Below, in pieces: positions 1,785-35,905 of a stretch of 64,000 nt of DNA; within the stretch, counting starts at the first letter, position 1, and the number at the start of each line of letters is the position of its first letter. The DNA lies in assembly GCA_963831235.1 (NCBI GenBank), contig CAWHPS010000047.1, positions 2,306 through 66,305 on the forward strand, in the 5' to 3' direction. Source of the DNA: an uncultured Fibrobacterota bacterium (lineage in GTDB: Bacteria > Fibrobacterota > OXYB2-FULL-49-7 > JAEUSG01). The translations under genes were made by a program, and so were the position numbers. The notes below the pieces were generated by a model. The model was not told where the DNA came from. It worked only from the letters and a program-made list of their open reading frames with translations, and did not search any database.

Positions 1785-1880
1785 TCAGAACTCCTGACCT
1801 CGCGTAATTTGAAAACACCCACAATTTTAGAAATTTCAATAAACTAAAGAATTGAGCTATGACGCCAAAAAGCGGTTGGA

Positions 1881-3836
1881 TTATTGACGGTTGTGCATAG
1901 TTTGAAGGATTTTTCTGATCAGCTCGGGGGTGCGAATAATCTTTTTTACCTTTGGCGATAGATTTCTATTTTCTTGTTCTTCGTTTTTTAATTTATTTCT
2001 GACCAGGTTTACATCGATTTGTGCAAATCGAGCTTCCAGCGATGGTGCACCGTTAAGAATGATCGTTCGATATGTGTTGTCGGACAGGTTTGAGATTAAC
2101 GGGGTATCTGTCAAGATAGCCTTCAGAGTTTTGGTCATAGTGTTATTGCCGTTTCTTTTTCTGTGGTTCCTGCGCAGATATCTGAAGAACCGCTCAAGGA
2201 TATTATTGGTCCGTTGAGGATAAATGATAACGGTGCCATGGGGTGTGTTTTTAACGATAGGGTCGGCGAAAAGCTTGTTCCAATAGCGTTTGATTTGGTC
2301 GTGCATTGAGCGGTAATCCTTATCGGGCTTGGTTTTCAAAGTCTCGGCCAGCGCCTTCTGAAAGTTTGTAACACGTTGACAAATAGTATTCATGTTCTTT
2401 TTGCCGTCGTCGTTTAAGCCATGTCTATCGTTTGGTAACGCAATTCGCATCGCCTGCCGCAAGCGGTCAAACACAACGGATTTTTCTTCCATACGATGAG
2501 CTGCTTTCTTCAACAGAGGGTCGTTGATGGTGTCGCCGATGTGTTTCCATAGGATACCGACCATTCGTTTGAGAGATTTCGGGGCTTTGTCACATCGGAC
2601 TCTGAGGTTATCAAGAACTTCATGGATTGAACAAAGCCGCTGATACAACGAAAGGTGAGGCCGGTCAAATGGGAAGCCGTACCCGTCGCCGTCCTTTTTT
2701 CCCTCTAGCGCCCAATGTATCAACACATAAACAATGAGAATGAGTGAGGTATCCGCGCAAAAAGACTGTGACGCGTTGTCATTGAGTCGGGCGCGAAGCA
2801 CATCGACACAGACAGGATCTTTTTCCACCAGTGGTTTGAGGATGCGGGCTTGCCTGTGCAGAAACGATTGAATGCCTTGACAGCGCAATCGTTTTCGCAC
2901 CACATCATTTTCTTTTGACATCAGGTCTTTTCCGATATCACGCAAAAAATGGAAATGACAGATGAAATGGCGCACAGAAGGGAATACTTTGGCAACGGCA
3001 TTCAAAATGCCCTTGGCCATGTCGCTTACAACAGCCAGTGGTACGTTGAAGTTTTGTTTTACTCGTTGAAGAAAGGGAATTATTTGTTCAGCATTTTCAG
3101 ATGGGGTTTTGATATTGTCCAGTACCAGTTCGCTAATACCATCCAAGGCACACATAAGATGGGGACTGTCAGCATCACAGGTGCTGTCCAGGTGAAGTAT
3201 GTATCCCCCGTGTTGACGCATGTGCGCCTGCAACTGCTTTCTACATTCCTGATGTGCAATAGCCAGATAGATAATAAATTTTCTGGCAAGCACACCAATT
3301 TCACTGCGAGAAATGGGGTTACCCTTTTCCCGCAGGCAATCCATGATCTCCTGTTCGCTGCGACAGGCGATGAAAAGTTGTGTGCCGACGAACACGATAA
3401 CATCATAGCCATAGAAGCCTTGCTCCGGTACCAGCGCAGAAAGCCCACGGACAGGCAATGTGCTTTGACAAAAAGGTTTATTGCAGGCACGTACCGTTTC
3501 ATGAGCGGTAAAAACACCTATCGCAAGTGTTGATACCTTTCGTGTTCTGGTTTTGATAACCGCGAGCGTGCTATTGCACTGATGGCATAGCGTAACATCA
3601 GAATCGAAGAAAAGGGTTGGTGGAGTTTTGAACAGAGCTGAAATGGTAAGGCCGGATCGAGCATCGTCAAGGTTTGTGCGTAGCGCTTCAATCAGCGACA
3701 ACCCGCAGTTTTTTTTTAATACCGTACTGTTCGAGGAGCGTATGAATCGCCTCTGGCGTAATGGCCGGCGATTGCGTCTGTAACCTACGGGCGCATTGTT
3801 CAATGGTGTCATCGGGATGCTGGATTCTGTCCACAA
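1881..3836 (-). CDS. IS transposase catalytic ORF (orfB), copy A
   Basis: 651-aa ORF with an N-terminal Cys-rich segment (CHQCNS..CNKPFC) and DDE-like blocks (HLDSTCD, VVSDMAKG, ICHFHFLRDIGKDL). The first ~40 codons overlap orfA and look out of frame (Arg-rich). Confidence 0.7.
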   Translation of the reverse strand: MWTESSIPMTPLNNAPVGYRRNRRPLRQRRFIRSSNSTVLKKNCGLSLIEALRTNLDDARSGLTISALFKTPPTLFFDSDVTLCHQCNSTLAVIKTRTRKVSTLAIGVFTAHETVRACNKPFCQSTLPVRGLSALVPEQGFYGYDVIVFVGTQLFIACRSEQEIMDCLREKGNPISRSEIGVLARKFIIYLAIAHQECRKQLQAHMRQHGGYILHLDSTCDADSPHLMCALDGISELVLDNIKTPSENAEQIIPFLQRVKQNFNVPLAVVSDMAKGILNAVAKVFPSVRHFICHFHFLRDIGKDLMSKENDVVRKRLRCQGIQSFLHRQARILKPLVEKDPVCVDVLRARLNDNASQSFCADTSLILIVYVLIHWALEGKKDGDGYGFPFDRPHLSLYQRLCSIHEVLDNLRVRCDKAPKSLKRMVGILWKHIGDTINDPLLKKAAHRMEEKSVVFDRLRQAMRIALPNDRHGLNDDGKKNMNTICQRVTNFQKALAETLKTKPDKDYRSMHDQIKRYWNKLFADPIVKNTPHGTVIIYPQRTNNILERFFRYLRRNHRKRNGNNTMTKTLKAILTDTPLISNLSDNTYRTIILNGAPSLEARFAQIDVNLVRNKLKNEEQENRNLSPKVKKIIRTPELIRKILQTMHNRQ

Positions 3837-4332
3837 GAATAAGCACGGTATCGCTACTACGTGGCTTATGCGGCGGGCTTACACTATCATGGCTGGTACG
3901 CTGCGCTATTTGCCTGGATCGCACGTCGCTGTTGGCCGAGAAATAAACCAGCTTATGGCCTATGCGATGCGACGATATTTCCTTGATACTGCCAAAGTGC
4001 GTATAGAGCGATGGAGCCGATACACCAAGGATAGAGCAGAGACTCTGTGCGTCGAGCCCTTCTTGCGATTCTCCTACTATATAGGCAACGGTTTTGGTCA
4101 GGTTCCCATGTCGTGAAAAACAAATGTCATTATGCCGCCAGATACCGTAACTGTCAAACTGTGGAACAGTGGATAACGCGTGGTATTTGGCGTTATGGTT
4201 GTAGCTGGTGTAGGCATTCCACTGGTGAAGTCTTCGCGAGGCAGTTCGTGTTGAGCATTTTGAAATTCTGGTGAATGTGTCGATGGTAAATACTTTTGCT
4301 TTGCATAATTGTTGCTGGACGGTTACTGCCAC
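3688..4332 (-). CDS. IS orfA (putative HTH DNA-binding protein), copy A
   Basis: 214-aa ORF upstream of orfB and overlapping it by 149 nt. Ends 20 nt (6 sense codons) after an A9 tract. Confidence 0.6.
   Translation of the reverse strand: MAVTVQQQLCKAKVFTIDTFTRISKCSTRTASRRLHQWNAYTSYNHNAKYHALSTVPQFDSYGIWRHNDICFSRHGNLTKTVAYIVGESQEGLDAQSLCSILGVSAPSLYTHFGSIKEISSHRIGHKLVYFSANSDVRSRQIAQRTSHDSVSPPHKPRSSDTVLILVDRIQHPDDTIEQCARRLQTQSPAITPEAIHTLLEQYGIKKKLRVVAD
3709..3717 (-). promoter_or_regulatory. A9 slippery tract at the orfA/orfB junction (copy A; the equivalent tract in copy B is 6425-6433)
   Basis: T9 on the plus strand, A9 in the mRNA sense. orfB is in the +1 frame relative to orfA. The tract lies inside the overlap. 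Confidence 0.5.
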
Positions 4333-4596
4333 AATACCTCCTCGGCATAGTATATTATATAGCCTATATTAATATAATATACTGCGCCCTTTAAAGCAAA
4401 TAAAAAAGCCGTTTCCTTCTGAAAAGAAATCGGCACTTAATAAAAAATAGGCCCCGGTACTACCAATCACAAAACCGTATGTCGTATCGTATAAACTATT
4501 CCTCTATAGAAATGGTTGACATATTAAAAGATAATCGCTTTTCAACCGCTTTTTGGCGTCATAGGAATTGAGCTATGACGCCAAAAAGCGGTTGGA

Positions 4597-6552
4597 TTAT
4601 TGACGGTTGTGCATAGTTTGAAGGATTTTTCTGATCAGCTCGGGGGTGCGAATAATCTTTTTTACCTTTGGCGATAGATTTCTATTTTCTTGTTCTTCGT
4701 TTTTTAATTTATTTCTGACCAGGTTTACATCGATTTGTGCAAATCGAGCTTCCAGCGATGGTGCACCGTTAAGAATGATCGTTCGATATGTGTTGTCGGA
4801 AAGGTTTGAGATTAACGGGGTATCTGTCAAGATAGCCTTCAGAGTTTTGGTCATAGTGTTATTGCCGTTTCTTTTTCTGTGGTTCCTGCGCAGATATCTG
4901 AAGAACCGCTCAAGGATATTATTGGTCCGTTGAGGATAAATGATAACGGTGCCATGGGGTGTGTTTTTAACGATAGGGTCGGCGAAAAGCTTGTTCCAAT
5001 AGCGTTTGATTTGGTCGTGCATTGAGCGGTAATCCTTATCGGGCTTGGTTTTCAAAGTCTCGGCCAGCGCCTTCTGAAAGTTTGTAACACGTTGACAAAT
5101 AGTATTCATGTTCTTTTTGCCGTCGTCGTTTAAGCCATGTCTATCGTTTGGTAACGCAATTCGCATCGCCTGCCGCAAGCGGTCAAACACAACGGATTTT
5201 TCTTCCATACGATGAGCTGCTTTCTTCAACAGAGGGTCGTTGATGGTGTCGCCGATGTGTTTCCATAGGATACCGACCATTCGTTTGAGAGATTTCGGGG
5301 CTTTGTCACATCGGACTCTGAGGTTATCAAGAACTTCATGGATTGAACAAAGCCGCTGATACAACGAAAGGTGAGGCCGGTCAAATGGGAAGCCGTACCC
5401 GTCGCCGTCCTTTTTTCCCTCTAGCGCCCAATGTATCAACACATAAACAATGAGAATGAGTGAGGTATCCGCGCAAAAAGACTGTGACGCGTTGTCATTG
5501 AGTCGGGCGCGAAGCACATCGACACAGACAGGATCTTTTTCCACCAGTGGTTTGAGGATGCGGGCTTGCCTGTGCAGAAACGATTGAATGCCTTGACAGC
5601 GCAATCGTTTTCGCACCACATCATTTTCTTTTGACATCAGGTCTTTTCCGATATCACGCAAAAAATGGAAATGACAGATGAAATGGCGCACAGAAGGGAA
5701 TACTTTGGCAACGGCATTCAAAATGCCCTTGGCCATGTCGCTTACAACAGCCAGTGGTACGTTGAAGTTTTGTTTTACTCGTTGAAGAAAGGGAATTATT
5801 TGTTCAGCATTTTCAGATGGGGTTTTGATATTGTCCAGTACCAGTTCGCTAATACCATCCAAGGCACACATAAGATGGGGACTGTCAGCATCACAGGTGC
5901 TGTCCAGGTGAAGTATGTATCCCCCGTGTTGACGCATGTGCGCCTGCAACTGCTTTCTACATTCCTGATGTGCAATAGCCAGATAGATAATAAATTTTCT
6001 GGCAAGCACACCAATTTCACTGCGAGAAATGGGGTTACCCTTTTCCCGCAGGCGATCCATGATCTCCTGTTCGCTGCGACAGGCGATGAAAAGTTGTGTG
6101 CCGACGAACACGATAACATCATAGCCATAGAAGCCTTGCTCCGGTACCAGCGCAGAAAGCCCACGGACAGGCAATGTGCTTTGACAAAAAGGTTTATTGC
6201 AGGCACGTACCGTTTCATGAGCGGTAAAAACACCTATCGCAAGTGTTGATACCTTTCGTGTTCTGGTTTTGATAACCGCGAGCGTGCTATTGCACTGATG
6301 GCATAGCGTAACATCAGAATCGAAGAAAAGGGTTGGTGGAGTTTTGAACAGAGCTGAAATGGTAAGGCCGGATCGAGCATCGTCAAGGTTTGTGCGTAGC
6401 GCTTCAATCAGCGACAACCCGCAGTTTTTTTTTAATACCGTACTGTTCGAGGAACGTATGAATCGCCTCTGGCGTAATGGCCGGCGATTGCGTCTGTAAC
6501 CTACGGGCGCATTGTTCAATGGTGTCATCGGGATGCTGGATTCTGTCCACAA
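4597..6552 (-). CDS. IS transposase catalytic ORF (orfB), copy B
   Basis: 651 aa, one amino-acid difference from copy A (IMDRLREKG versus IMDCLREKG). Confidence 0.7.
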   Translation of the reverse strand: MWTESSIPMTPLNNAPVGYRRNRRPLRQRRFIRSSNSTVLKKNCGLSLIEALRTNLDDARSGLTISALFKTPPTLFFDSDVTLCHQCNSTLAVIKTRTRKVSTLAIGVFTAHETVRACNKPFCQSTLPVRGLSALVPEQGFYGYDVIVFVGTQLFIACRSEQEIMDRLREKGNPISRSEIGVLARKFIIYLAIAHQECRKQLQAHMRQHGGYILHLDSTCDADSPHLMCALDGISELVLDNIKTPSENAEQIIPFLQRVKQNFNVPLAVVSDMAKGILNAVAKVFPSVRHFICHFHFLRDIGKDLMSKENDVVRKRLRCQGIQSFLHRQARILKPLVEKDPVCVDVLRARLNDNASQSFCADTSLILIVYVLIHWALEGKKDGDGYGFPFDRPHLSLYQRLCSIHEVLDNLRVRCDKAPKSLKRMVGILWKHIGDTINDPLLKKAAHRMEEKSVVFDRLRQAMRIALPNDRHGLNDDGKKNMNTICQRVTNFQKALAETLKTKPDKDYRSMHDQIKRYWNKLFADPIVKNTPHGTVIIYPQRTNNILERFFRYLRRNHRKRNGNNTMTKTLKAILTDTPLISNLSDNTYRTIILNGAPSLEARFAQIDVNLVRNKLKNEEQENRNLSPKVKKIIRTPELIRKILQTMHNRQ

Positions 6553-7048
6553 GAATAAGCACGGTATCGCTACTACGTGGCTTATGCGGCGGGCTTACAC
6601 TATCATGGCTGGTACGCTGCGCTATTTGCCTGGATCGCACGTCGCTGTTGGCCGAGAAATAAACCAGCTTATGGCCTATGCGATGCGACGATATTTCCTT
6701 GATACTGCCAAAGTGCGTATAGAGCGATGGAGCCGATACACCAAGGATAGAGCAGAGACTCTGTGCGTCGAGCCCTTCTTGCGATTCTCCTACTATATAG
6801 GCAACGGTTTTGGTCAGGTTCCCATGTCGTGAAAAACAAATGTCATTATGCCGCCAGATACCGTAACTGTCAAACTGTGGAACAGTGGATAACGCGTGGT
6901 ATTTGGCGTTATGGTTGTAGCTGGTGTAGGCATTCCACTGGTGAAGTCTTCGCGAGGCAGTTCGTGTTGAGCATTTTGAAATTCTGGTGAATGTGTCGAT
7001 GGTAAATACTTTTGCTTTGCATAATTGTTGCTGGACGGTTACTGCCAC
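6404..7048 (-). CDS. IS orfA, copy B
   Basis: 214 aa, one amino-acid difference from copy A (IHTFLEQ versus IHTLLEQ). Confidence 0.6.
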   Translation of the reverse strand: MAVTVQQQLCKAKVFTIDTFTRISKCSTRTASRRLHQWNAYTSYNHNAKYHALSTVPQFDSYGIWRHNDICFSRHGNLTKTVAYIVGESQEGLDAQSLCSILGVSAPSLYTHFGSIKEISSHRIGHKLVYFSANSDVRSRQIAQRTSHDSVSPPHKPRSSDTVLILVDRIQHPDDTIEQCARRLQTQSPAITPEAIHTFLEQYGIKKKLRVVAD

Positions 7049-7513
7049 AATACCTCCTCGGCATAGTATATTATATAGCCTATATTAATATAATATACTG
7101 CGCCCTTTAAAGCAAATAAAAAAGCCGTTTCCTTCTGAAAAGAAATCGGCACTTAATAAAAAATAGGCCCCGGTACTACCAATCACAAAACCGTATGTCG
7201 TATCGTATAAACTATTCCTCTATAGAAATGGTTGACATATTAAAAGATAATCGCTTTTCAACCGCTTTTTGGCGTCATAGGAATTGAGGCATTTCTTTAC
7301 GACCGTAATTGTATATTTAATAATACATTACAGTAGTAATTGCACTCGTAAACATGGACCATAGAAACTAAAAACGTTTAAAAAATGGACTATTTCTGTT
7401 TTCGACCATATTTTAGGCTTTTATATATATTTACTGGAATAATGCATTTGATAATTAAGCAGTTACAGGTATTAAAGCAAGACCATCGGTTATAGCGAGG
7501 TCAGGAGTTCTGA

Positions 7514-7687: not shown

Positions 7688-7730
7688 ATACCGGGTGGGT
7701 CGGGGGCCTCTCGGCCCCGTTCCCCCCTCA

Positions 7731-7764
7731 GAACCGTACGTGACAGTTTCCCGTCATACGGCTC
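7731..7764 (-). ncRNA. group II intron domain V hairpin (copy 1; copies 2 and 3 are at 12863-12896 and 20942-20975)
   Basis: Minus strand reads GAGCCGTATGACGGGAAACTGTCACGTACGGTTC. This is 34 nt with an AGC triad at positions 2-4, a GAAA tetraloop and a 2-nt CG bulge on the 3' strand. A domain VI-like helix with a bulged A follows. Confidence 0.8.
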
Positions 7765-8168
7765 AAGCATTCATAAGGCAGCACCTTGCTTTTGTGCCAC
7801 CCAGACGTAACCTTGTGGCCAACTCGCTTACCATACGGATGGTTATTGCACTTAGCGCGTATAATCCGTACAGCGTGAATCCGGTTACGGCCTTTGCGAT
7901 ACGCACCAGCAGGCCCTAAGTCGCTGTCGACGGGAGGGGGCCCGATTTGCACATAAGTCGCGTCAGTTTCAGACGCCTTTTTGGTGTCGCCACCATGCAA
8001 ACCACCATAGCGTTCCCTCCTGGAAGGGTTCTCCTGATTATCTCGCAGTAGAACACCAGCATAGACCGTCAGCCTCCCATACGGGTGAGATAATGTTCCA
8101 CCGTCGTCAATCGGCGGTCAATCTCTATCTCCCTCATTACAAGAGAGCATTCGCTTCTGTCAGCTTCT

Positions 8169-10745
8169 GTCGGGATAGAGTTTACGCGCGCGCACATTAG
8201 GGTTCGTTGGCTTTTCCACAAACTTTCGCTGTGGGCCTCAGCACGACTCCCATCGTCACGTTTCATAAAGCCTCCCTGCGATCCCGGACGGTCGGTTTTC
8301 CCGAGTCCGGTTCTGACCTTGGCTCACCTTATATTTTCCGGTCATAAGCCTTCCCATCTTTTGTCTCGGCTTAAGTGTCGGCACACATACACCAAGTCTT
8401 GCATGGTTTACTTATTTCCTCGCCACTGCTCTTTATGGATGCTTATCCAGCTCTGTGTCTGGACATCCATATAGTCCCAGTGACCGCCAAGTGCCCAGAG
8501 CCCCTTTGCTATGGAAGTGTTACCTTCCGTTCTTAGCTCATACTGGCTCATGCGCCAGTCTCTTGTTCTCCACCCTTTTTCTTCCTATAAGGATGGTCTT
8601 TGCAGGTTGCTGCCGCCCCTGCTGAACATGAGACCTTCCCGACATTATTTCTGCAATCCTTGTGTAGGCGCATGGACCCGTATCCCGTTGTGCCTCCTTG
8701 CTGCATTTACCCACTTCTTTGCAAGGAGCATCGGCTTCACGTTCGGGGTGATACGTTCAGCGCACAAAACTTATCCTTGCCATGCAACTTCGGCAAGGGG
8801 AGGTATTTCGGGACTGCAGTCATTCGTTCATCTTCAAGCTCCTACACTCGCTAGACCTCCAGGTTGCTCCCACCTCAGCTTTATCCAAGCTGGGCGGCCA
8901 GGCCGTTTACACCACGCATTCCTCTGATGGTTGCCTGCACAGAGGTGTGGTATCGCTACGTGTCCGACATGGGCAATTGACACGGTTGGACTTCCACCAA
9001 CTGGATTGCAGCCTTGTCGGCTGCTCCGTCGGGATAGAGTTTACGCGCGCGCACATTAGGGTTCGTTGGCTTTTCCACAAACTTTCGCTGTGGGCCTCAG
9101 CACGACTCCCATCGTCACGTTTCATAAAGCCTCCCTGCGATCCCGGACGGTCGGTTTTCCCGAGTCCGGTTCTGACCTTGGCTCACCTTATATTTTCCGG
9201 TCATAAGCCTTCCCATCTTTTGTCTCGGCTTAAGTGTCGGCACACATACACCAAGTCTTGCATGGTTTACTTATTTCCTCGCCACTGCTCTTTATGGATG
9301 CTTATCCAGCTCTGTGTCTGGACATCCATATAGTCCCAGTGACCGCCAAGTGCCCAGAGCCCCTTTGCTATGGAAGTGTTACCTTCCGTTCTTAGCTCAT
9401 ACTGGCTCATGCGCCAGTCTCTTGTTCTCCACCCTTTTTCTTCCTATAAGGATGGTCTTTGCAGGTTGCTGCCGCCCCTGCTGAACATGAGACCTTCCCG
9501 ACATTATTTCTGCAATCCTTGTGTAGGCGCATGGACCCGTATCCCGTTGTGCCTCCTTGCTGCATTTACCCACTTCTTTGCAAGGAGCATCGGCTTCACG
9601 TTCGGGGTGATACGTTCAGCGCACAAAACTTATCCTTGCCATGCAACTTCGGCAAGGGGAGGTATTTCGGGACTGCAGTCATTCGTTCATCTTCAAGCTC
9701 CTACACTCGCTAGACCTCCAGGTTGCTCCCACCTCAGCTTTATCCAAGCTGGGCGGCCAGGCCGTTTACACCACGCATTCCTCTGATGGTTGCCTGCACA
9801 GAGGTGTGGTATCGCTACGTGTCCGACATGGGCAATTGACACGGTTGGACTTCCACCAACTGGATTGCAGCCTTGTCGGCTGCTCCGTCGGGATAGAGTT
9901 TACGCGCGCGCACATTAGGGTTCGTTGGCTTTTCCACAAACTTTCGCTGTGGGCCTCAGCACGACTCCCATCGTCACGTTTCATAAAGCCTCCCTGCAAT
10001 CCCGGACGGTCGGTTTTCCCGAGTCCGGTTCTGACCTTGGCTCACCTTATATTTTCCGGTCATAAGCCTTCCCATCTTTTGTCTCGGCTTAAGTGTCGGC
10101 ACACATACACCAAGTCTTGCATGGTTTACTTATTTCCTCGCCACTGCTCTTTATGGATGCTTATCCAGCTCTGTGTCTGGACATCCATATAGTCCCAGTG
10201 ACCGCCAAGTGCCCAGAGCCCCTTTGCTATGGAAGTGTTACCTTCCGTTCTTAGCTCATACTGGCTCATGCGCCAGTCTCTTGTTCTCCACCCTTTTTCT
10301 TCCTATAAGGATGGTCTTTGCAGGTTGCTGCCGCCCCTGCTGAACATGAGACCTTCCCGACATTATTTCTGCAATCCTTGTGTAGGCGCATGGACCCGTA
10401 TCCCGTTGTGCCTCCTTGCTGCATTTACCCACTTCTTTGCAAGGAGCATCGGCTTCACGTTCGGGGTGATACGTTCAGCGCACAAAACTTATCCTTGCCA
10501 TGCAACTTCGGCAAGGGGAGGTATTTCGGGACTGCAGTCATTCGTTCATCTTCAAGCTCCTACACTCGCTAGACCTCCAGGTTGCTCCCACCTCAGCTTT
10601 ATCCAAGCTGGGCGGCCAGGCCGTTTACACCACGCATTCCTCTGATGGTTGCCTGCACAGAGGTGTGGTATCGCTACGTGTCCGACATGGGCAATTGACA
10701 CGGTTGGACTTCCACCAACTGGATTGCAGCCTTGTCGGCTGCTCC
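8169..10745 (-). repeat. three exact head-to-tail copies of an 859-bp unclassified element nested in intron copy 1
   Basis: Units at 8169-9027, 9028-9886 and 9887-10745. 2577 = 3 x 859. One SNP was seen between units (gatcccgg versus aatcccgg). Absent from intron copies 2 and 3. Confidence 0.85.
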
Positions 10746-11283
10746 CACCCCATACCTCCATCAACCCACCTTGCGGCCAGTCTGCTCTTCCAGTAGCAAA
10801 GAGCGTAGCTATGAGGTTACTTCGTTCCGTGTTTTGACCCATTAGATGCTTTAGGTTTGCGTAGTCCGCCGGTGGGGCTATTATCCGTGCCGGGACTAGT
10901 TGGAGAGTCCCCAGCCACCCACATCCGCCTTGCGACGGACACAGGCCTGTCAATTCCTTTGGCCTGCTACCTTCGTGACGACGGTTAACCGCATTCAGTT
11001 AGTTTAACCATGGCATCCTATTCTATGCCCGACTTTGCCGGAATGGAATTATCCGGAGAGACCCAGCCTCGCGGCTTGGCCCCTGCACTTTTGAATGTGC
11101 TGAGCACTTTGTCCGGGAGGCTTCATACCCACCGTAACAGGATTACGGCACGCATGCTCCCGTAGAATCTCGATGACGGAACATCGGGTCTGACAGGTTA
11201 CCATCATGACGAGTGCGATATTCTCGTCTTATCAGCCAATGGCAGCCTTCAGACAGTCAAAGAACACAGTTGACGAATCGCGA

Positions 11284-12821: not shown

Positions 12822-13838
12822 ACCGGGTGGGTCGGGGGCCTCTCGGCCCCGTTCCCCCCTCAGAACCGTACGTGACAGTTTCCCGTCATACGGCTCAAGC
12901 ATTCATAAGGCAACACCTTGCTTTTGTGCCACCCAGACGTAACCTTGTGGCCAACTCGCTTACCATACGGATGGTTATTGCACTTAGCGCGTATAATCCG
13001 TACAGCGTGAATCCGGTTACGGCCTTTGCGATACGCACCAGCAGGCCCTAAGTCGCTGTCGACGGGAGGGGGCCCGATTTGCACATAAGTCGCGTCAGTT
13101 TCAGACGCCTTTTTGGTGTCGCCACCATGCAAACCACCATAGCGTTCCCTCCTGGAAGGGTTCTCCTGATTATCTCGCAGTAGAACACCAGCATAGACCG
13201 TCAGCCTCCCATACGGGTGAGATAATGTTCCACCGTCGTCAATCGGCGGTCAATCTCTATCTCCCTCATTACAAGAGAGCATTCGCTTCTGTCAGCTTCT
13301 CACCCCATACCTCCATCAACCCACCTTGCGGCCAGTCTGCTCTTCCAGTAGCAAAGAGCGTAGCTATGAGGTTACTTCGTTCCGTGTTTTGACCCATTGG
13401 ATGCTTTAGGTTTGCGTAGTCCGCCGGTGGGGCTATTATCCGTGCCGGGACTAGTTGGAGAGTCCCCAGCCACCCACATCCGCCTTGCGACGGACACAGG
13501 CCTGTCAATTCCTTTGGCCTGCTACCTTCGTGACGACGGTTAACCGCATTCAGTTAGTTTAACCATGGCATCCTATTCTATGCCCGACTTTGCCGGAATG
13601 GAATTATCCGGAGAGACCCAGCCTCGCGGCTTGGCCCCTGCACTTTTGAATGTGCTGAGCACTTTGTCCGGGAGGCTTCATACCCACCGTAACAGGATTA
13701 CGGCACGCATGCTCCCGTAGAATCTCGATGACGGAACATCGGGTCTGACAGGTTACCATCATGACGAGTGCGATATTCTCGTCTTATCAGCCAATGGCAG
13801 CCTTCAGACAGTCAAAGAACACAGTTGACGAATCGCGA
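12822..13838 (-). mobile_element. ORF-less group II intron-like element, copy 2 (1017 nt)
   Basis: Domain V at 12863-12896. Flanks are the cassette leader ...TTTTCGGC on the left and attC-2 on the right. No RT-like ORF. Confidence 0.7.
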
Positions 13839-15982: not shown

Positions 15983-17116
15983 ATGATTTCAACGCCATGC
16001 ACTTTTATCGAATACTTCCAAGACATACCGGACCCACGCATAGAACGTAAAAAACTCCACAAACTTATCGACATAATTGTTGTCTTGGTATGTGCTACCC
16101 TTTGCGGCGCCAAGTCATTCGAGGAAGTCGAATTATTTGGCAACGAGCGAATAGAGTGGCTTAAACAGTTTCTTGAACTCAAAAACGGCATTCCATCGCA
16201 TGACACTTTTGGGCGGGCCAGTGCCTTGCTAAATCCGAAAGACTTTCAAGAATGCTTTATAAAATGGGTTGAGGCGTTACGATTGCCGAAACAAAATGAA
16301 GTAATTGCAGTCGATGGAAAAACCGCACGGCGTTCATTTGATACCAAGGCCGACCGAAATGCTATCCATGTCGTTAGTGCCTGGGCAGCAGAAAATAACT
16401 TGGTACTGGGGCAAATAAAGGTGAATGATAAATCCAACGAAATCACCGCTATCCCTGAATTGCTGAATATGCTCATGGTGAAAGGATGTATCGTCACTAT
16501 CGATGCAATGGGTTGTCAAAAAGCTATTGCCGACAATATTGTAACCAATGGCGCGGATTATGTTCTCGCCGTTAAAGAAAATCAACCGAGCCTGTATGAA
16601 CAAATCCGCAACCGCGTAGATACTGTCGTGGTGGATGGGTTGAAAGATGTGGCCCATGACACGTATTCAACAGAGGATAAGGGACATGGTCGCGAAGAGC
16701 ATCGTGAGTATCATGTTATCGATGATATTACCTGGCTAAAAAATAAGGAACAGTGGCGATCATTGTCTGCTATCGGTGCTGTTCACTCCATAAGGAAAAC
16801 AAAAAAAGCAGAGCAGACAGAAATACGGTATTATATTCTCAGTCGTAAAATGTCGGCAAAACAGTTTGGTCAGGCAGTACGCAGTCATTGGGGAATTGAA
16901 AACAAATTGCATTGGAATCTGGATGTGTCTTTTAGAGAGGATGACTGTCGCATTAGAAAATCAAATGCACCAACAAATATGAATGTAGTCCGGCATGTCG
17001 CTATAAATCTATTGAGACAGGAAACATCAATAAAAGCCAGTATCGTACGCAAACAATTAAAAGCAGCTTTGAGCACACAATATTTGGAGCGCATCCTTGG
17101 AATCGTTAAATTTTAA
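15983..17116 (+). CDS. ISAs1-family transposase
   Basis: DPRIERKKLHKLIDIIVVLVCATLCGAKSFEEVELFG and HWGIENKLHWNLDVSFREDDCR are hallmark ISAs1 (H-repeat) motifs. Confidence 0.9.
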   Translation: MISTPCTFIEYFQDIPDPRIERKKLHKLIDIIVVLVCATLCGAKSFEEVELFGNERIEWLKQFLELKNGIPSHDTFGRASALLNPKDFQECFIKWVEALRLPKQNEVIAVDGKTARRSFDTKADRNAIHVVSAWAAENNLVLGQIKVNDKSNEITAIPELLNMLMVKGCIVTIDAMGCQKAIADNIVTNGADYVLAVKENQPSLYEQIRNRVDTVVVDGLKDVAHDTYSTEDKGHGREEHREYHVIDDITWLKNKEQWRSLSAIGAVHSIRKTKKAEQTEIRYYILSRKMSAKQFGQAVRSHWGIENKLHWNLDVSFREDDCRIRKSNAPTNMNVVRHVAINLLRQETSIKASIVRKQLKAALSTQYLERILGIVKF

Positions 17117-17410
17117 TGCGATTGCCCTGTTACACGAGTAACATCGCCGCACTGATATTCAAAACGCAGGGTCTGTTCTACAATATCAATAAAATGTCTT
17201 AAAGAACTTTCCATGCCCCATCCCGATATTTTAAAACCAATTGAGTTATTAAGTGGGTTATTTTAAAAATATATGATTAATAGTAAGAAATGACATACTT
17301 TCAGTAAGTTTTGCCATACTAAACTTCTTTCCCTAATAATAAAAATAACTTATACTTATTAACAGATATTCAATTAATAGTAGGTTTTTACAAGGAATGA
17401 AGGAGGCATT

Positions 17411-19861
17411 ATGACGAAGATGCGAAACGAGTTCGACTATGCGGCGATCGTTGACCCGGAGGAAATGCGGGACGCCCGTCTGTATCTGGCGCCCATGCTG
17501 GAGACGGCGAGGGTCATCGCGGACACCCCTGGTGCAGGGCCTGAAATCGTCTGCGTGTCCCAAGGCTGGGGCACATTGCAGATCGGCCGCTCCGTGCACC
17601 ACAAAAAGACCCCTTTGTGTCTTGCGGGGAGGACGTTCGCGTCCGGGTTGGGAACCCATGCCGACAGCGAAATCCTGATTCGGCTTCCCGCCGGGGCTGG
17701 GCGATTAACGGGCCTGTGCGGCGTCAACGACAGCCTGGAGACGCGCCAGTTGACCGCCCATGCGCTGGTGTTTCGTATCGAGGTCGATGGTCAAGAGGTG
17801 TGGCGGAGCGGGCCCCAGGACGCCGGCACCGAGCCGGCGCGTGTCGATGCGCGGCTCGCCGGTTGCAAGCAGTTCACCTTGAAGGTCGAGGGGCCGAATA
17901 ATTATGGTCACGCAAATTGGGTCGATTTGAAAGCCACGTTGACCAACGGCAAGATCGTCGAAATTGGCAAGCCGCAAGCCGTTGACATCGGGTTCAGCTT
18001 CCGGTATGGCGGAAAACCGTCGGCGGGGTTTCTCGCGGCCTGGCGGCCGAAGAAACAGCGGTTGCCGGAGAAGGACGGCGTCGTTCTGCACCGGATTACC
18101 CGCACCGATCCGAAGACCGGGCTGGCGGTAATCTGCGAAATCAAGGAATACACACGGTTTCCGGTGGTGGAATGGGGCCTGCGCCTGAAGAACACCTCGA
18201 AGCGCAAGACGCCGCTCCTGGAGGACATCCGGTCTCTGGACACGGAACTGTGGCTCGGTCAGTTCCCATATCTGAACCACTGGAACGGCGACTACTGCGC
18301 GCAGGACGGCTACGAGCCGTTTCGGGTCTCGCTGGCGCATGAGGAGGAGTACCGGTTTGCGCCGGTGGGCGGCCGCCCGACCGATCGCGCCTGGCCGTAT
18401 TACAATCTCGAGTGCCCGAGCGCCAACTGCGGTCTGATCGTCGTGGTGGGTTGGTCCGGGCAATGGGCGTCTTGTTTTCGCGGACTCGACAATCACGCCG
18501 TCCACATTACCGCCGGCCAGGAGCTGACGCATTTCAAGCTTTTGCCGGGCGAGGAAGTGCGCACCCCGTTGTCGGTGCTGATGTTCTATCGCGGCGACCG
18601 GGTGCGCTCGCAGAACCTCTGGCGGCGGTGGATGCTGGCTCATAATCTGCCCCGGCCCGGCGGACGGCTGCCCGAGCCGATCCTGCCAGTGTACTGTGCA
18701 CAGGTGGGTACCGAAATGGCGGCGGAGACCGAGGAAACGCAGAAAGCCGGCATGGAACGCTACGTCGAGGAGGGGATCAAGCTCGATTACTGGTGGATGG
18801 ACGCGGGCTGGTACCCGTGCGATGGCCAGTGGTCCAAAACGGGCACGTGGGAGCCGGACTCGAAGCGCTTTCCACGCGGCCTGCGGGCCGTATGCGACCA
18901 CGCGCATGCCCGGGGCATGAAGACGCTGGTCTGGTTCGAGCCTGAGCGAGTGCATCCGGATACCTGGCTGTGGAAGGAGCGGCCCCAGTGGTTGCTCTCA
19001 TCCCAAAAGTCGAATTACCGGCTGCTCGACCTCGGCAACCCGGCAGCGCTGAAGTGGCTGATCAACCATGTGGTCCGGACGATCCGCGAGCAGGGGATCG
19101 ACCTGTACCGGCAGGATTTCAACTTCCAGCCGTTGCCGCACTGGCGCGCCAACGATGCGCCGGATCGGCAGGGGATCAGCGAGATCCGCCATGTCGAGGG
19201 GTATCTCGCCTATTGGACCGCGTTGCGTCAGCGGTTCCCCGGCATGCTGATCGACTCCTGCTCCAGCGGCGGGCGTCGCAACGACCTAGAAACCATGCGG
19301 CTTGCCGTGCCGTTCCACAAGACCGACTACAACTATGACGACCAGACGACCAAACAGGCGTTTCACCACACGCTGTCCTCATGGCTGCCGTATTACGGCG
19401 CGCTCTTGTTGGCGGAAGACATGGGGGATGTTTACGCGTTCCGCAGCTCGCTGGCCTCGATGACGTTGTTTGTCAACAACCTGCAGGGTGATGTGGACTG
19501 GCGCCAGTTGAAGCGCTTCACCGAGGAATGGCGGCGCATCACCGGCGCCGGGTATTTCTACGGCGACTACTATCCCCTGACCCCCTACAACCGCGACGAG
19601 ACCCAGTGGATCGCCTGGCAGTTTCACCGGCCGGATACCGGCAAGGGCCTGGTGCAGGCGTTCCGGCGCAAAGATAGCAAGGTTGTGTCAACCCGATTCC
19701 ATTTGCAGGGGCTGGAACTCGACGTGTCGTATGTCATAACGGACGTGGATGCACCGAAAAAAAGGATCACCCTGTCCGGCAAGGAACTGATGACTTCCGG
19801 CCTGATGATAGAGATGCGTCGGGCGCCACAGGCGGCGGTAATCCTGTACCAGAAGGCGTGA
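17411..19861 (+). CDS. GH36-type alpha-galactosidase with an N-terminal NPCBM-like carbohydrate-binding module
   Basis: DYWWMDAGWY, GMKTLVWFEPERV, YRQDFN and SCSSGGRRNDLE motifs. N-terminus has GLGTHADSEI...ANWVDLKATL. The CDS is conspicuously GC-rich and all other frames are open. Confidence 0.7.
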   Translation: MTKMRNEFDYAAIVDPEEMRDARLYLAPMLETARVIADTPGAGPEIVCVSQGWGTLQIGRSVHHKKTPLCLAGRTFASGLGTHADSEILIRLPAGAGRLTGLCGVNDSLETRQLTAHALVFRIEVDGQEVWRSGPQDAGTEPARVDARLAGCKQFTLKVEGPNNYGHANWVDLKATLTNGKIVEIGKPQAVDIGFSFRYGGKPSAGFLAAWRPKKQRLPEKDGVVLHRITRTDPKTGLAVICEIKEYTRFPVVEWGLRLKNTSKRKTPLLEDIRSLDTELWLGQFPYLNHWNGDYCAQDGYEPFRVSLAHEEEYRFAPVGGRPTDRAWPYYNLECPSANCGLIVVVGWSGQWASCFRGLDNHAVHITAGQELTHFKLLPGEEVRTPLSVLMFYRGDRVRSQNLWRRWMLAHNLPRPGGRLPEPILPVYCAQVGTEMAAETEETQKAGMERYVEEGIKLDYWWMDAGWYPCDGQWSKTGTWEPDSKRFPRGLRAVCDHAHARGMKTLVWFEPERVHPDTWLWKERPQWLLSSQKSNYRLLDLGNPAALKWLINHVVRTIREQGIDLYRQDFNFQPLPHWRANDAPDRQGISEIRHVEGYLAYWTALRQRFPGMLIDSCSSGGRRNDLETMRLAVPFHKTDYNYDDQTTKQAFHHTLSSWLPYYGALLLAEDMGDVYAFRSSLASMTLFVNNLQGDVDWRQLKRFTEEWRRITGAGYFYGDYYPLTPYNRDETQWIAWQFHRPDTGKGLVQAFRRKDSKVVSTRFHLQGLELDVSYVITDVDAPKKRITLSGKELMTSGLMIEMRRAPQAAVILYQKA

Positions 19862-20900: not shown

Positions 20901-21917
20901 ACCGGGTGGGTCGGGGGCCTCTCGGCCCCGTTCCCCCCTCAGAACCGTACGTGACAGTTTCCCGTCATACGGCTCAAGCATTCATAAGGCAACACCTTGC
21001 TTTTGTGCCACCCAGACGTAACCTTGTGGCCAACTCGCTTACCATACGGATGGTTATTGCACTTAGCGCGTATAATCCGTACAGCGTGAATCCGGTTACG
21101 GCCTTTGCGATACGCACCAGCAGGCCCTAAGTCGCTGTCGACGGGAGGGGGCCCGATTTGCACATAAGTCGCGTCAGTTTCAGACGCCTTTTTGGTGTCG
21201 CCACCATGCAAACCACCATAGCGTTCCCTCCTGGAAGGGTTCTCCTGATTATCTCGCAGTAGAACACCAGCATAGACCGTCAGCCTCCCATACGGGTGAG
21301 ATAATGTTCCACCGTCGTCAATCGGCGGTCAATCTCTATCTCCCTCATTACAAGAGAGCATTCGCTTCTGTCAGCTTCTCACCCCATACCTCCATCAACC
21401 CACCTTGCGGCCAGTCTGCTCTTCCAGTAGCAAAGAGCGTAGCTATGAGGTTACTTCGTTCCGTGTTTTGACCCATTGGATGCTTTAGGTTTGCGTAGTC
21501 CGCCGGTGGGGCTATTATCCGTGCCGGGACTAGTTGGAGAGTCCCCAGCCACCCACATCCGCCTTGCGACGGACACAGGCCTGTCAATTCCTTTGGCCTG
21601 CTACCTTCGTGACGACGGTTAACCGCATTCAGTTAGTTTAACCATGGCATCCTATTCTATGCCCGACTTTGCCGGAATGGAATTATCCGGAGAGACCCAG
21701 CCTCGCGGCTTGGCCCCTGCACTTTTGAATGTGCTGAGCACTTTGTCCGGGAGGCTTCATACCCACCGTAACAGGATTACGGCACGCATGCTCCCGTAGA
21801 ATCTCGATGACGGAACATCGGGTCTGACAGGTTACCATCATGACGAGTGCGATATTCTCGTCTTATCAGCCAATGGCAGCCTTCAGACAGTCAAAGAACA
21901 CAGTTGACGAATCGCGA
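20901..21917 (-). mobile_element. ORF-less group II intron-like element, copy 3 (1017 nt)
   Basis: No differences from copy 2 were detected. Domain V at 20942-20975. Flanked by the leader ...TTTCCGGC and by attC-4. Confidence 0.7.
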
Positions 21918-22727: not shown

Positions 22728-24138
22728 GCGGGAATATGTCTGAACAGGAGAGAGAAGAACTCAAACTTCGCATGATGGAACAAATAGAGGGCTTGTTGAA
22801 CAAGATTGCCGACACCGGCGTCGTACGCAACGCGGAACAATTGCGAAAAGCCGAACTGGAGATTGCCGCAATTACCGATGGAATGGCCGGGGATGTCATC
22901 AAAACTGTCATCAAACACTCTCTGCAAGACCAGTACCTTATTACCCAGGGACAGTTATTGGCAAAGGGGGCTACCGTACGCATGAAAAACCACGGCAAGC
23001 GTGATGTCGTGATACAGCCCTATCGAGGCGATCCTTTTACTGTAGAAACGACCTATTACTACAAGGCGGGGCAGGTTCACCGGCCTGCAGCAAAAAAAAA
23101 GGGTTCTTTCCCGAATTAACACTGCTTGGCGTCCTCGCCCACCATACGCCGGTGGCCGCAAGTGAGATAACGCAATTGGCTACGGCGTTATGCTCACTCA
23201 AGGAAGCCGTTGTGATACTCCAGGAACGAGGACGCAGCATTGATATCAAGACCCTGCGCCGTCTGACCTATCATTTCGCCGATACAGCCCGTTCAGTACA
23301 GCAAACCATCCCCCTCACTCTTTCCAATACCGTTGCGGGCAAACGATGTGCTGTTTCCGTGGATGGTGGACGCATCCGAATTCGTACGCCCAAGCAGGGT
23401 AAAAAGACCTCGAAAAAGCGAAGTCGTTTCAAGGCAGATTGGCGTGAACCCAAACTGCTCCATATCTGGCTTCTGGAGGGTGATGGGACTATCTGTCGTG
23501 ATTTTGCGCCGTGGATTGACGGCACGCTGAATGGTCCCGATGCCGTCTTCATGCTCCTTGGATATTACCTGACAGCACTCAATATCACCAGCGCCGATCA
23601 GGTCCTTTTTATTGCTGACGGAGCACCTTGGATATGGGCCCGGGTTCCGCTGCTCATAAAAGAACTCGGGCTTGACCCGGCAAAGGTCTACCAAATTGTT
23701 GATTTCTATCATGCCGTGGAGCACCTCAACGCCGTGGCAAAGCTGTGCAAGCGTTGGCCGGAAAAACGACGCCGTCAATGGGTAAGCCGCTTAAAGGGTT
23801 ATCTGTGGGTGGGAAAGAATGAGGAGGTTGTGGAGGCAGTACGCGAAATCTCTCGGGGTCGAAATGGCAAACTGATAACGCGTGAAAGAAATTATTTCGA
23901 AGGTAATATTCAGAGAATGCAATACGCATTGGCCCGGAAAAACAATCTCCCCATTGGCAGCGGCCCAATGGAAAGCGCAATCAGGCGAGTGGTGAATCTG
24001 CGCATGAAAGGAAATGGCATCTTTTGGCTGGAACAGAATGCGGAAGCTATGATCATGCTACGCTCATACTACAAAGCGGGACGCTGGAACGATCTCTTTC
24101 TCATGGCAACCACCGCATCGGCAGGAGATCACTCATAA
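22724..24138 (+). CDS. IS transposase in two frames (22724-23119 and 23005-24138), joined by a -1 shift at A9
   Basis: ADGAPWIWARV and VDFYHAVEHLN blocks (UPF0236/ISKra4-like). The A9 tract at 23092-23100 lies in the 115-nt overlap. The -1 product reads ...AAKKKGFFPELTLLGV... Confidence 0.65.
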
Positions 24139-28715: not shown

Positions 28716-28845
28716 CATCCAACGGCGGGTTGTGTTGCGCGCGCCTTGCTCGCGTCAAGCGAGCTTTTATATAAAAGGCAACAAAGTCCATAATCAATAT
28801 TTGTTGCCATCTTTGCGCGCGTCAATACCAACCCGATAGTTGGGC
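28716..28845 (-). repeat. integron attC site 9
   Basis: CATCCAAC ... GTTGGGC. Identical to attC-16 apart from the part of the R' box lying beyond the crossover (CATCCAA versus GGCCCAA). Confidence 0.8.
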
Positions 28846-29283
28846 CTACACCGAGGCTCATTGCAAACACCCACCTCTCCGGCAATGTACTTTTTTACTT
28901 CGACGCCGCCATTCTGTTAACACATCCACATAAGGCGACACCACAATTCCAGACATCCTGCAACACCGCTTACTTTTACACGGTGAAGCTCATTTACTCA
29001 CAAGAGAATTTCATTATTTTATCCGCACTTTCAACCCACTGAGCTGTTCTTCCAAATACCTTCAACTCAATCTTTAGCACTCTATCAGTTTCAGTTCAGC
29101 AAATTGGCATACATTTGCGTTTCTGGTATATTTTAGCAATCGAAGAAGCATGCCTTTAATCCGGTGCCGTTACGACGAGTGTTTTTCAGTTACGTTTATC
29201 TTGGCACCGGATTTCGTCCCAATCTCTTCATTCCGAACACCGAATCAATTATGGTTCATTTGTTGGACTGCTCCGCTTTTTCC

Positions 29284-35337: not shown

Positions 35338-35467
35338 GGCCCAACGGCGGGTTGTGTTGCGCGCGCCTTGCTCGCGTCAAGCGAGCTTTTATATAAAAGG
35401 CAACAAAGTCCATAATCAATATTTGTTGCCATCTTTGCGCGCGTCAATACCAACCCGATAGTTGGGC
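35338..35467 (-). repeat. integron attC site 16
   Basis: GGCCCAAC ... GTTGGGC. Confidence 0.8.
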
Positions 35468-35905
35468 CTACACCGAGGCTCATTGCAAACACCCACCTCT
35501 CCGGCAATGTACTTTTTTACTTCGACGCCGCCATTCTGTTAACACATCCACATAAGGCGACACCACAATTCCAGACATCCTGCAACACCGCTTACTTTTA
35601 CACGGTGAAGCTCATTTACTCACAAGAGAATTTCATTATTTTATCCGCACTTTCAACCCACTGAGCTGTTCTTCCAAATACCTTCAACTCAATCTTTAGC
35701 ACTCTATCAGTTTCAGTTCAGCAAATTGGCATACATTTGCGTTTCTGGTATATTTTAGCAATCGAAGAAGCATGCCTTTAATCCGGTGCCGTTACGACGA
35801 GTGTTTTTCAGTTACGTTTATCTTGGCACCGGATTTCGTCCCAATCTCTTCATTCCGAACACCGAATCAATTATGGTTCATTTGTTGGACTGCTCCGCTT
35901 TTTCC

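Follow-up and report, generated by a model that had tools for sequence, protein, structure and literature searches.

Three putative group IIB-like introns without open reading frames form a natural tandem array inside another group II intron

Results

We analyzed a 64,000 nt stretch of an uncultured Fibrobacterota bacterium (contig CAWHPS010000047.1, positions 2,306 to 66,305 of the forward strand; in the following called the window), in which an 859-bp element is repeated three times within a group II intron. Each 859-bp unit is probably a small, non-autonomous group IIB-like intron that lacks an open reading frame (ORF) and is nested in another ORF-less intron, as judged from its sequence and that of its relatives. 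The array would represent a natural, sequence-level case of a group II intron building a tandem array, in which insertion turns a mismatched target site into a perfect one.

Anatomy of the array and its host intron

The array at positions 8169–10745 consists of three units (8169–9027, 9028–9886, and 9887–10745) joined head to tail without spacer, giving a length of exactly 3 × 859 = 2577 bp. Direct comparison showed that units 1 and 2 are identical and that unit 3 carries a single-nucleotide polymorphism (SNP), G to A, at plus-strand unit position 112 (window 9998). According to direct comparison and a repeat-family search, the 859-bp periodicity stops exactly at 8169 and 10745 and does not continue for one base on either side. 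Tandem Repeats Finder reported no array because the longest period it handles is 500, and the 859-bp unit was hence missed.

The window contains three minus-strand copies of the host, an ORF-less group II intron of 1017 nt (c1, c2, and c3; Table 1). In each of them Rfam finds RF02012 (79 bits) and RF00029 (67 bits). No difference separates c2 from c3, and, the 2577-bp insert aside, c1 departs from both by 2 bases. All three units share the orientation of the host intron, yielding a same-orientation intron-in-intron arrangement for which c2 and c3 provide the empty sites. Read in intron sense on the minus strand, the insertion point lies between GGAGGTATGGGGTG (longer flank, GGAGGUAUGGGGUG) and AGAAGC. 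It falls in the 5′ strand of the stem GGGGUGAGA/UCUCACCC, which is present in the minimum-free-energy fold of the host, and until the three units are removed, the host fold would stay interrupted. These results bear out the sequence-only reading of this DNA, which had described an exact head-to-tail triplication with one SNP, absent from copies 2 and 3, nested in the manner of a twintron and cutting a long-range helix of the host.

Table 1 Coordinates of the array, its host introns, and the predicted guide and target sites. EBS, exon-binding site; IBS, intron-binding site.
Feature	Position in the window	Strand	Comment
Unit 3	9887–10745	−	5′-most copy in intron sense; abuts IBS1 of the host site; sole carrier of the SNP
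Unit 2	9028–9886	−	Identical to unit 1 and to the L001 solo copy
Unit 1	8169–9027	−	3′-most copy in intron sense; 3′ end CUAUCCCGAC abuts host A at 8168
Domain V variant, unit 1	8280–8313	−	GAACCGGACUCGGGAAAACCGACCGUCCGGGAUC; 2-nt bulge, GAAA-type loop, AAC for AGC
Domain V variant, units 2 and 3	9139–9172, 9998–10031	−	Same as the unit 1 hairpin
Enlarged domain VI, unit 1	8169–8279	−	Bulged A at 8176, 8 nt from the 3′ end; 3′-terminal AC
Host intron c1, 5′ part, 538 nt	10746–11283	−	Contains RF02012 match, 11188–11031
Host intron c1, 3′ part, 479 nt	7690–8168	−	Contains canonical domains V–VI (RF00029, 7766–7690)
Host intron c2, 1017 nt	12822–13838	−	Same target site (GGAGGUAUGGGGUG followed by A), junction 13301/13300, empty
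Host intron c3, 1017 nt	20901–21917	−	Identical to c2; target site likewise empty
Host intron 5′ junctions	11283/11284, 13838/13839, 21917/21918	−	In attC R′ box; 3′ ends at 7690, 12822, 20901
IBS2 of host site, GGAGG	10755–10759	−	Complementary to EBS2 CCUCC; 5/5 pairs
Spacer UAU, 3 nt	10752–10754	−	Between IBS2 and IBS1
IBS1 of host site, GGGGUG	10746–10751	−	Complementary to EBS1 CACCCC; 6/6 pairs
Original IBS3 (+1) of host site	8168	−	A; no pair with EBS3 C
EBS2 of unit 1, CCUCC	8799–8803	−	Sense 225–229; unit 2, 9658–9662; unit 3, 10517–10521
EBS1 of unit 1, CACCCC	8745–8750	−	Sense 278–283; unit 2, 9604–9609; unit 3, 10463–10468
EBS3 of unit 1, C	8680	−	Sense 348; unit 2, 9539; unit 3, 10398

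The unit recurs with the same ends in distant bacteria

Solo copies, which the sequence-only reading had suggested looking for to define the ends of the element, do exist. One was retrieved by exact match to an ORF inside the unit (ENA ERZ25039527 contig_43170; L001, with further family loci numbered likewise) and has a RhuM-like gene on one side and, on the other, cas1 of a type I-E CRISPR locus. Its sequence, flanked 5′ by GGGGTG as in the window, runs from GGAGCAGCC to CUAUCCCGAC and agrees with units 1 and 2 at every position (100% identity). Going by this copy, the unit appears to be a discrete mobile element with exactly the ends of the tandem unit.

We found more than 20 homologues of 859–942 nt in seven bacterial phyla, ranging from Actinomycetota to Bacteroidota. 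A scan of one genome per species yielded 15 loci with diverged homologues, with 12 copies at full length (898–942 nt), from Desulfobacteraceae, Vicinamibacterales, Pedobacter, Planctomycetota, and other metagenome-assembled genomes. A plasmid search added copies in Mycobacterium riyadhense and Niallia and a fragment in Cupriavidus, and blastN of E. coli genomes gave no match. The ends are conserved in full-length homologues of many phyla (GGAGCAGCC...CUAYCCGAC), and throughout the family the copies start with GGAGCAGCCGACAAGGCUGCAAUCCAG and finish with GCGCGCC..UUCUAYCCGAC. The 3′ end of the unit also matches that of a canonical host intron in another locus, L011 (UCUACCCGAC).

All full-length family members (859–942 nt) lack an ORF, and none carries a reverse transcriptase (RT)/maturase in domain IV, in agreement with the earlier statement that the element has no convincing ORF. 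The antisense 138/183-aa ORFs were rejected as genes, with substitution rates equal at the three codon positions (0.28, 0.29, and 0.26). The 138-aa antisense ORF, given as the longest, is without codon periodicity, and indels in relatives shift and thereby disrupt its frame. Such long antisense open frames arise because the sense strand is purine-rich.

Architecture of a putative group II ribozyme

A consensus structure of 10 family members computed by RNAalifold contains 235 pairs, 141 of them with compensatory changes. A covarying long-range stem closes its large domain I, after which come intermediate stems and, at the 3′ end, domains V and VI, so that the canonical order from I to VI is kept. 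In each window unit the 5′ region matches RF02003 (D1-D4-4) with 47.6 bits (E 1e-8; gathering score 49), and the scores reach 50–55 bits, over the threshold, in L007, L008, L009, and L011. When the unit was scanned with Rfam at E ≤ 10, as the sequence-only reading had proposed for group II, retron, and large non-coding RNA models, group II domain I was the sole match, and no retron, large non-coding RNA, or other family was detected.

The domain V hairpin is 34–35 nt long with a 2-nt bulge and a GNRA-type loop. The hairpin has two helices, CCGGAC/GUCCGG, for which L007 and L014 show compensatory changes, and UCGG/CCGA; the bulge is CU/CC and the loop GAAA(A/U). Its closing pair covaries (C:G in 8 copies, G:C in 6, and G.U in 1), and the array SNP (window 9998, sense C to U) converts the closing G-C pair into G.U in unit 3. 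In domain VI, the A of the GGGGGG/UCU-A-CCC stem (window 8176; alignment column 972) is unpaired, and the terminus reads GAC; across the family the bulged A lies 7–8 nt from the 3′-terminal AC. The earlier observation at 8313–8280 of a hairpin that resembles, but does not match, domain V thus stands and can be stated more precisely, as a conserved domain V variant. The label of an unknown element, in turn, is better replaced by that of a putative ORF-less IIB-like group II intron.

Three guides match the DNA flanking the unit

The exon-binding sites EBS2, EBS1, and EBS3 were identified by covariation with the flanking DNA, with G.U pairs accepted in the guide-target matches. A conserved hairpin presents EBS1 in its loop, and in ten distinct copies 59 of 60 positions pair between this guide and the 6 nt upstream of the element; permuted flanks give a mean of 30, and 0 of 20000 permutations reach 59. 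EBS2, a 5-mer, pairs 8–10 nt further upstream at 45 of 50 positions (permuted mean 30; 0 of 20000 permutations reach 45). EBS3 is the single variable base in the otherwise invariant GGGGUA-N-GGGUCCA and pairs with the first downstream base (+1) in 11 of 12 copies. A pairing of the IIA delta type was considered and rejected: the base just 5′ of EBS1 is a constant U that does not covary with +1, while position 348 does. Judged from this covariation, the recognition of the flanks by EBS1, EBS2, and EBS3 corresponds to the IIB mode of exon recognition. At the host site of the window the +1 base is A, a mismatch to the EBS3 C of the units, in contrast to both unit junctions and L001, where it is G and matches.

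The guides and ends also bear on what kind of element the unit is. A non-autonomous DNA transposon with an internal guide, of the IS200/IS605 type or PATE-like, instead of a retroelement would likewise account for a specific flank without target duplication, the lack of an ORF, and an internal guide that covaries with the 5′ flank. IS200/IS605 elements likewise use guide pairing. Such an origin is nevertheless highly improbable given the Rfam group II domain I matches, a fold of ~900 nt with covariation and a domain V/VI architecture, three guides at typical positions of IIB introns that accept G.U pairs, a 3′ end in common with canonical introns, and no TnpA-like gene seen in the loci examined.

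The idea of circular permutation in a group II ribozyme, or of a concatemer formed by rolling-circle reverse transcription of an intron circle, with the true start at GTGCG, is equally hard to maintain. Circularly permuted group II ribozymes are known from bacteria (PMC8637638), and a GUGCG does follow a domain VI-like stem in the window unit, 27 nt before the 3′ end. However, this motif is not conserved in the family, in which only GCGCGC is, and the solo copy as well as all relatives have the ends of the tandem unit. These shared ends and the non-conserved GTGCG contradict a permuted phase starting there. Furthermore, domains V and VI lie 3′ in the canonical order rather than 5′ of domain I, and the guides pair with the DNA that flanks the tandem-unit ends.

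Tandem arrays recur and suggest a route of formation

Scanning metagenomes for a junction of the 3′ end with a following 5′ end, we found five independent contigs with head-to-tail copies. The abutting copies are 92% identical in L017 and 88% identical in L021. With neighbors diverging to this degree, these are separate insertions and not duplications or assembly wrap-arounds. From these junction sequences, tandem arrays appear to be a property of the family.

From the guides and flanks we infer the following order of events, in which catalytic activity of the unit and an RT acting in trans are assumed. An RT/maturase encoded elsewhere would supply the protein functions, the excised unit RNA would reverse-splice into DNA, and a cDNA copy would then fix the insertion. 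The first copy would have entered host copy c1 at GGAGG-UAU-GGGGUG/A, where the matches to EBS2 and EBS1 are perfect and the C of EBS3 stands opposite A. Insertion spares both upstream sites, IBS2 as well as IBS1, and the G that starts the resident copy would become the new +1 base and pair with the EBS3 C. As the +1 A is thus replaced by the resident G, the occupied site would be a better target than the empty one, and together with the preserved 5′ flank this would lead to an array in which new copies are placed between the 5′ flank and the resident copy. Two more copies inserted there would give the spacer-less 3 × 859 array, with the 5′-most copy (9887–10745, the carrier of the SNP) as the youngest. 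The sequence-only reading had already attributed the reiteration to a retroelement whose target in the 5′ flank survives each insertion; the guides support this idea and add that the flank carries IBS2 and IBS1 and that the resident G would supply IBS3.

Splicing would proceed sequentially from the 5′ side, with each removal recreating a 5′ exon/intron junction of GGGGUG and the G of the next unit. Three sequential reactions could clear the array, and the host stem would be restored only when all three units are gone.

Weighing re-insertion against other origins of the array

Several observations weigh against an active group II intron that re-inserts next to itself. At the base of domain V, all 16 of 16 copies read x-A-A-C...G-G-A-U-x′, that is, AAC with GA opposite the middle A, while characterized group II introns have the catalytic triad AGC or CGC (PMC4424553). 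This register is secure because the flanking pair x:x′ covaries (C:G, G:C, G.U). Even with the limit at E ≤ 10, RF00029 detects no domain V in the unit. Of 18 copies, 14 begin with GGAGCAG and 2 with GGAGCGG instead of the GUGYG of canonical introns, and the GGAGC start is fixed by the L001 solo copy and by the tandem junctions. In view of the AAC, the GGAGC end, and the absent RF00029 match, catalytic competence is to be regarded as putative. An RT gene was not found in the 64-kb window by tblastn with the RT of L009, nor was there one among the 16 window ORFs scanned against Pfam; mobilization in trans is therefore something that we infer. The units are nearly identical, and unequal recombination could equally yield the second and third copies once one was present; the count of three is that of the assembly. 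Finally, the tandem pairs elsewhere do not all follow the pairing seen in the window. In L017 and L021 the upstream copy has a G as EBS3, unpaired with the +1 G, and the EBS1 of the downstream copy in L021 (L021 sense 1–1484), CUCCCG, is mismatched to the array flank GGAAGU. This EBS1 fits instead a CGGGAG located 45 nt upstream in the same flank.

The G opposite G in L017 and L021 refutes EBS3 pairing as a universal need for tandem formation. As far as these junctions tell, the EBS3 pair seems to help without being obligatory.

Re-insertion has to be compared, foremost, with a scenario in which one copy arrived by retrohoming and the DNA was then amplified in tandem, by replication slippage or unequal homologous recombination between sister copies. 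We consider this course unlikely. One SNP in 2577 bp is what it would leave behind, and once two copies are present, unequal crossing-over readily gives three; the same contig also holds another tandem pair, the 2708 bp × 2 of an IS256-like element, so that the locus may tolerate or generate tandem duplications. The first duplication, however, would need breakpoints at both exact ends of the element without a shared flanking base, which is unlikely for slippage and automatic for re-insertion. The divergence between head-to-tail neighbors in L017 and L021 likewise speaks for independent arrivals, the match of the EBS3 C to G(+1) predicts re-insertion, and tandem integration has been experimentally demonstrated for the intron EcKTE56.groEL (PMC12584367).

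A mis-assembly, in which one nested copy or a dispersed repeat came out as three tandem copies, is very improbable. Exact long repeats are difficult to assemble, and the junction contigs L018 and L019 are short with repeated ends 99–100% identical, so that these two could be collapsed or wrapped repeats. In the window, by contrast, one unit has a private SNP and both host junctions are exact, matching the empty sites in c2 and c3; and the clearly different abutting copies in L017 and L021 indicate that genuine arrays of this family exist.

Introns inside introns

Most of the readable insertion sites of the family lie within other group II introns. In L007, L008, L009, L011, and L022 the insertion is in the loop of a canonical domain V, with GAGCCGGAUGCGGGAA and AACUGCACGUCCGGUU as flanks, and in L007, L009, and L022 a group II RT/maturase gene of the host lies directly upstream. 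An uninterrupted host copy in the same locus reveals a clean insertion of 916 nt in L011. In L010, 39 nt separate the copy from a canonical domain V downstream. In L003, a family member (337–1283) is nested at position 46 of another one (1–341), and hence the family also homes into itself. The copy in L022 (4001–4940) comes from a cultured isolate: it corresponds to positions 22805–23741 of the Mycobacterium riyadhense plasmid NZ_OY970457.1, where it is unannotated in RefSeq, and lies directly downstream of a coding sequence annotated with a “group II intron maturase-specific domain”, flanked by the domain V halves.

The Vicinamibacterales locus L011 (8419–9160, 11949–12167) contains several copies of an ORF-less host intron of the RF02005 type, ~840 nt long. 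This intron begins with a canonical GUGUG and has CAGAAC as the hexaloop of its domain V, and the nested family member sits in one of the copies.

Taken further, the unit might belong to an undescribed, phylum-spanning lineage of non-autonomous group II ribozymes, a proposal we make tentatively. Its members would be parasites of introns, mostly in the domain V loop of RT-encoding introns whose RT they borrow; they would form tandem arrays because their target is preserved or improved by insertion, and would work with a 5′ end other than GUGYG and an active site without the invariant G of AGC. A literature search, whose reach did not extend to Simon et al. 2008 on ORF-less varieties, gave no report of the family, the AAC triad, or domain V homing. 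Within the same limit, spacer-less arrays and recurrent homing into domain V were not found described.

Comparison with known systems

The closest parallel to the array is the IIB1 intron EcKTE56.groEL, which integrates in tandem in E. coli through pairing of EBS3 with an IBS3 that is the initial G of the resident intron, more commonly for a delta-ORF construct with the RT provided in trans (PMC12584367). The two systems agree in a further copy placed between the resident one and the intact 5′ exon, in the initial G as IBS3, and in a 3′ end of ...CCGAC. The published case differs in being a laboratory assay with two copies, a gene stop codon, and a U.G wobble, whereas the window has a natural three-copy array inside an intron, with a Watson-Crick match of the EBS3 C to G and a mismatch at the original site.

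Twintrons and intron nests of archaea and bacteria, known from Methanosarcina acetivorans, Thermosynechococcus, and Trichodesmium (PMC4424553, PMC2882425, PMC4649490) share with the window the homing of ORF-less group II introns in the same orientation into group II introns and the need to remove the inner intron before the outer one folds. They are nested without head-to-tail arrays at one site, in contrast to the family described here, which is present in seven or more bacterial phyla and has the domain V loop of unrelated host introns as a recurrent target.

In the family as in canonical group IIB introns, EBS1, EBS2, and EBS3 lie in domain I, which is large and closed by a long-range stem; the domain V hairpin has a 2-nt bulge, an A is bulged in domain VI, and the 3′ terminus is AC. 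The family is set apart from them by the lack of an intron-encoded protein, by GGAGC versus GUGYG at the 5′ end, by AAC with an extra purine on the opposite strand versus the AGC/G.U triad, and by a domain VI of ~110 nt in most members.

HYERs (Liu et al. 2024, as summarized in PMC12990946) are group IIC ribozymes that lack an ORF and multiply in genomes. They resemble the family in being protein-less, 600–900 nt long, present in several copies per genome, and directed to their targets by a short guide; they differ as IIC ribozymes with a single 6-nt target recognition site, while the family has EBS2 and an EBS3 of the IIB type. The 1017-nt host intron is more HYER-like than the 859-bp unit.

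Twintrons, ORF-less introns, and tandem retrohoming are thus each known separately. What looks new is a natural three-copy array whose cause can be read from the guides, the breadth of the family together with its intron-in-intron habit, and the combination of an AAC domain V with a GGAGC 5′ end. A protein-less family of ~0.9 kb that, in our sample, resides mainly inside other introns is a candidate for a mobile-element parasite of mobile elements. Should its members prove catalytically active, a change at a near-invariant position would be tolerated in the group II active site, with a bearing on comparisons with the spliceosome. The short retargetable guides would, moreover, be of interest for ribozyme engineering, and family copies stand unannotated in RefSeq records, as on the M. 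riyadhense plasmid.

The surrounding integron and insertion sequences

Positions 11273–48841 of the window constitute a chromosomal integron. Its integrase (47537–48841, plus strand) matches TIGR02249 with 359 bits against a cut-off of 265, and to its left lies a long array of minus-strand cassettes with attC sites of ~165 nt in between. These sites run from R″ (GCCCAAC) over the imperfect inverted repeat GGUUGGUAUUGACGCGCGC/GCGCGCGCAACACAACC to R′ (GTTGGGC).

The host introns c1–c3 are inserted inside the R′ box of attC sites, between GTTGN and GCCGG, on the top strand and in cassette orientation. Their inferred 5′ end, UCGCG, is likewise not GUGYG. Published group IIC-attC introns of integrons also lie within attC sites of the cassette array but encode an RT and occupy the bottom strand, opposite to cassette transcription (PMC3001079), whereas the host intron is ORF-less and sits in the top strand of the R′ box (GTTGN/GCC) in cassette orientation. 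It therefore does not conform to the group IIC-attC type.

Upstream in window coordinates, at 1849–7288, a 2708-bp IS256-like insertion sequence (IS) occurs twice head to tail, with the 8-bp sequence GAATTGAG before, between, and after the copies, which differ by 3 SNPs. It encodes a MULE/IS256-like transposase of 651 aa and has terminal inverted repeats (CTATGACGCCAAAAAGCGG). At 15983–19861, an IS4-type transposase gene (DDE_Tnp_1) adjoins a gene for an 816-aa NPCBM/melibiase-like glycosidase; with a G+C content of 59–64% compared to the window average of 44%, this segment looks like foreign DNA within the cassette array. One cassette protein carries a sorting domain of the type IX secretion system (Por_Secre_tail). 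Two 300-bp stretches of the cassette array (28719–29018 and 35341–35640) are 100% identical, which suggests a recent duplication or exchange between cassettes.

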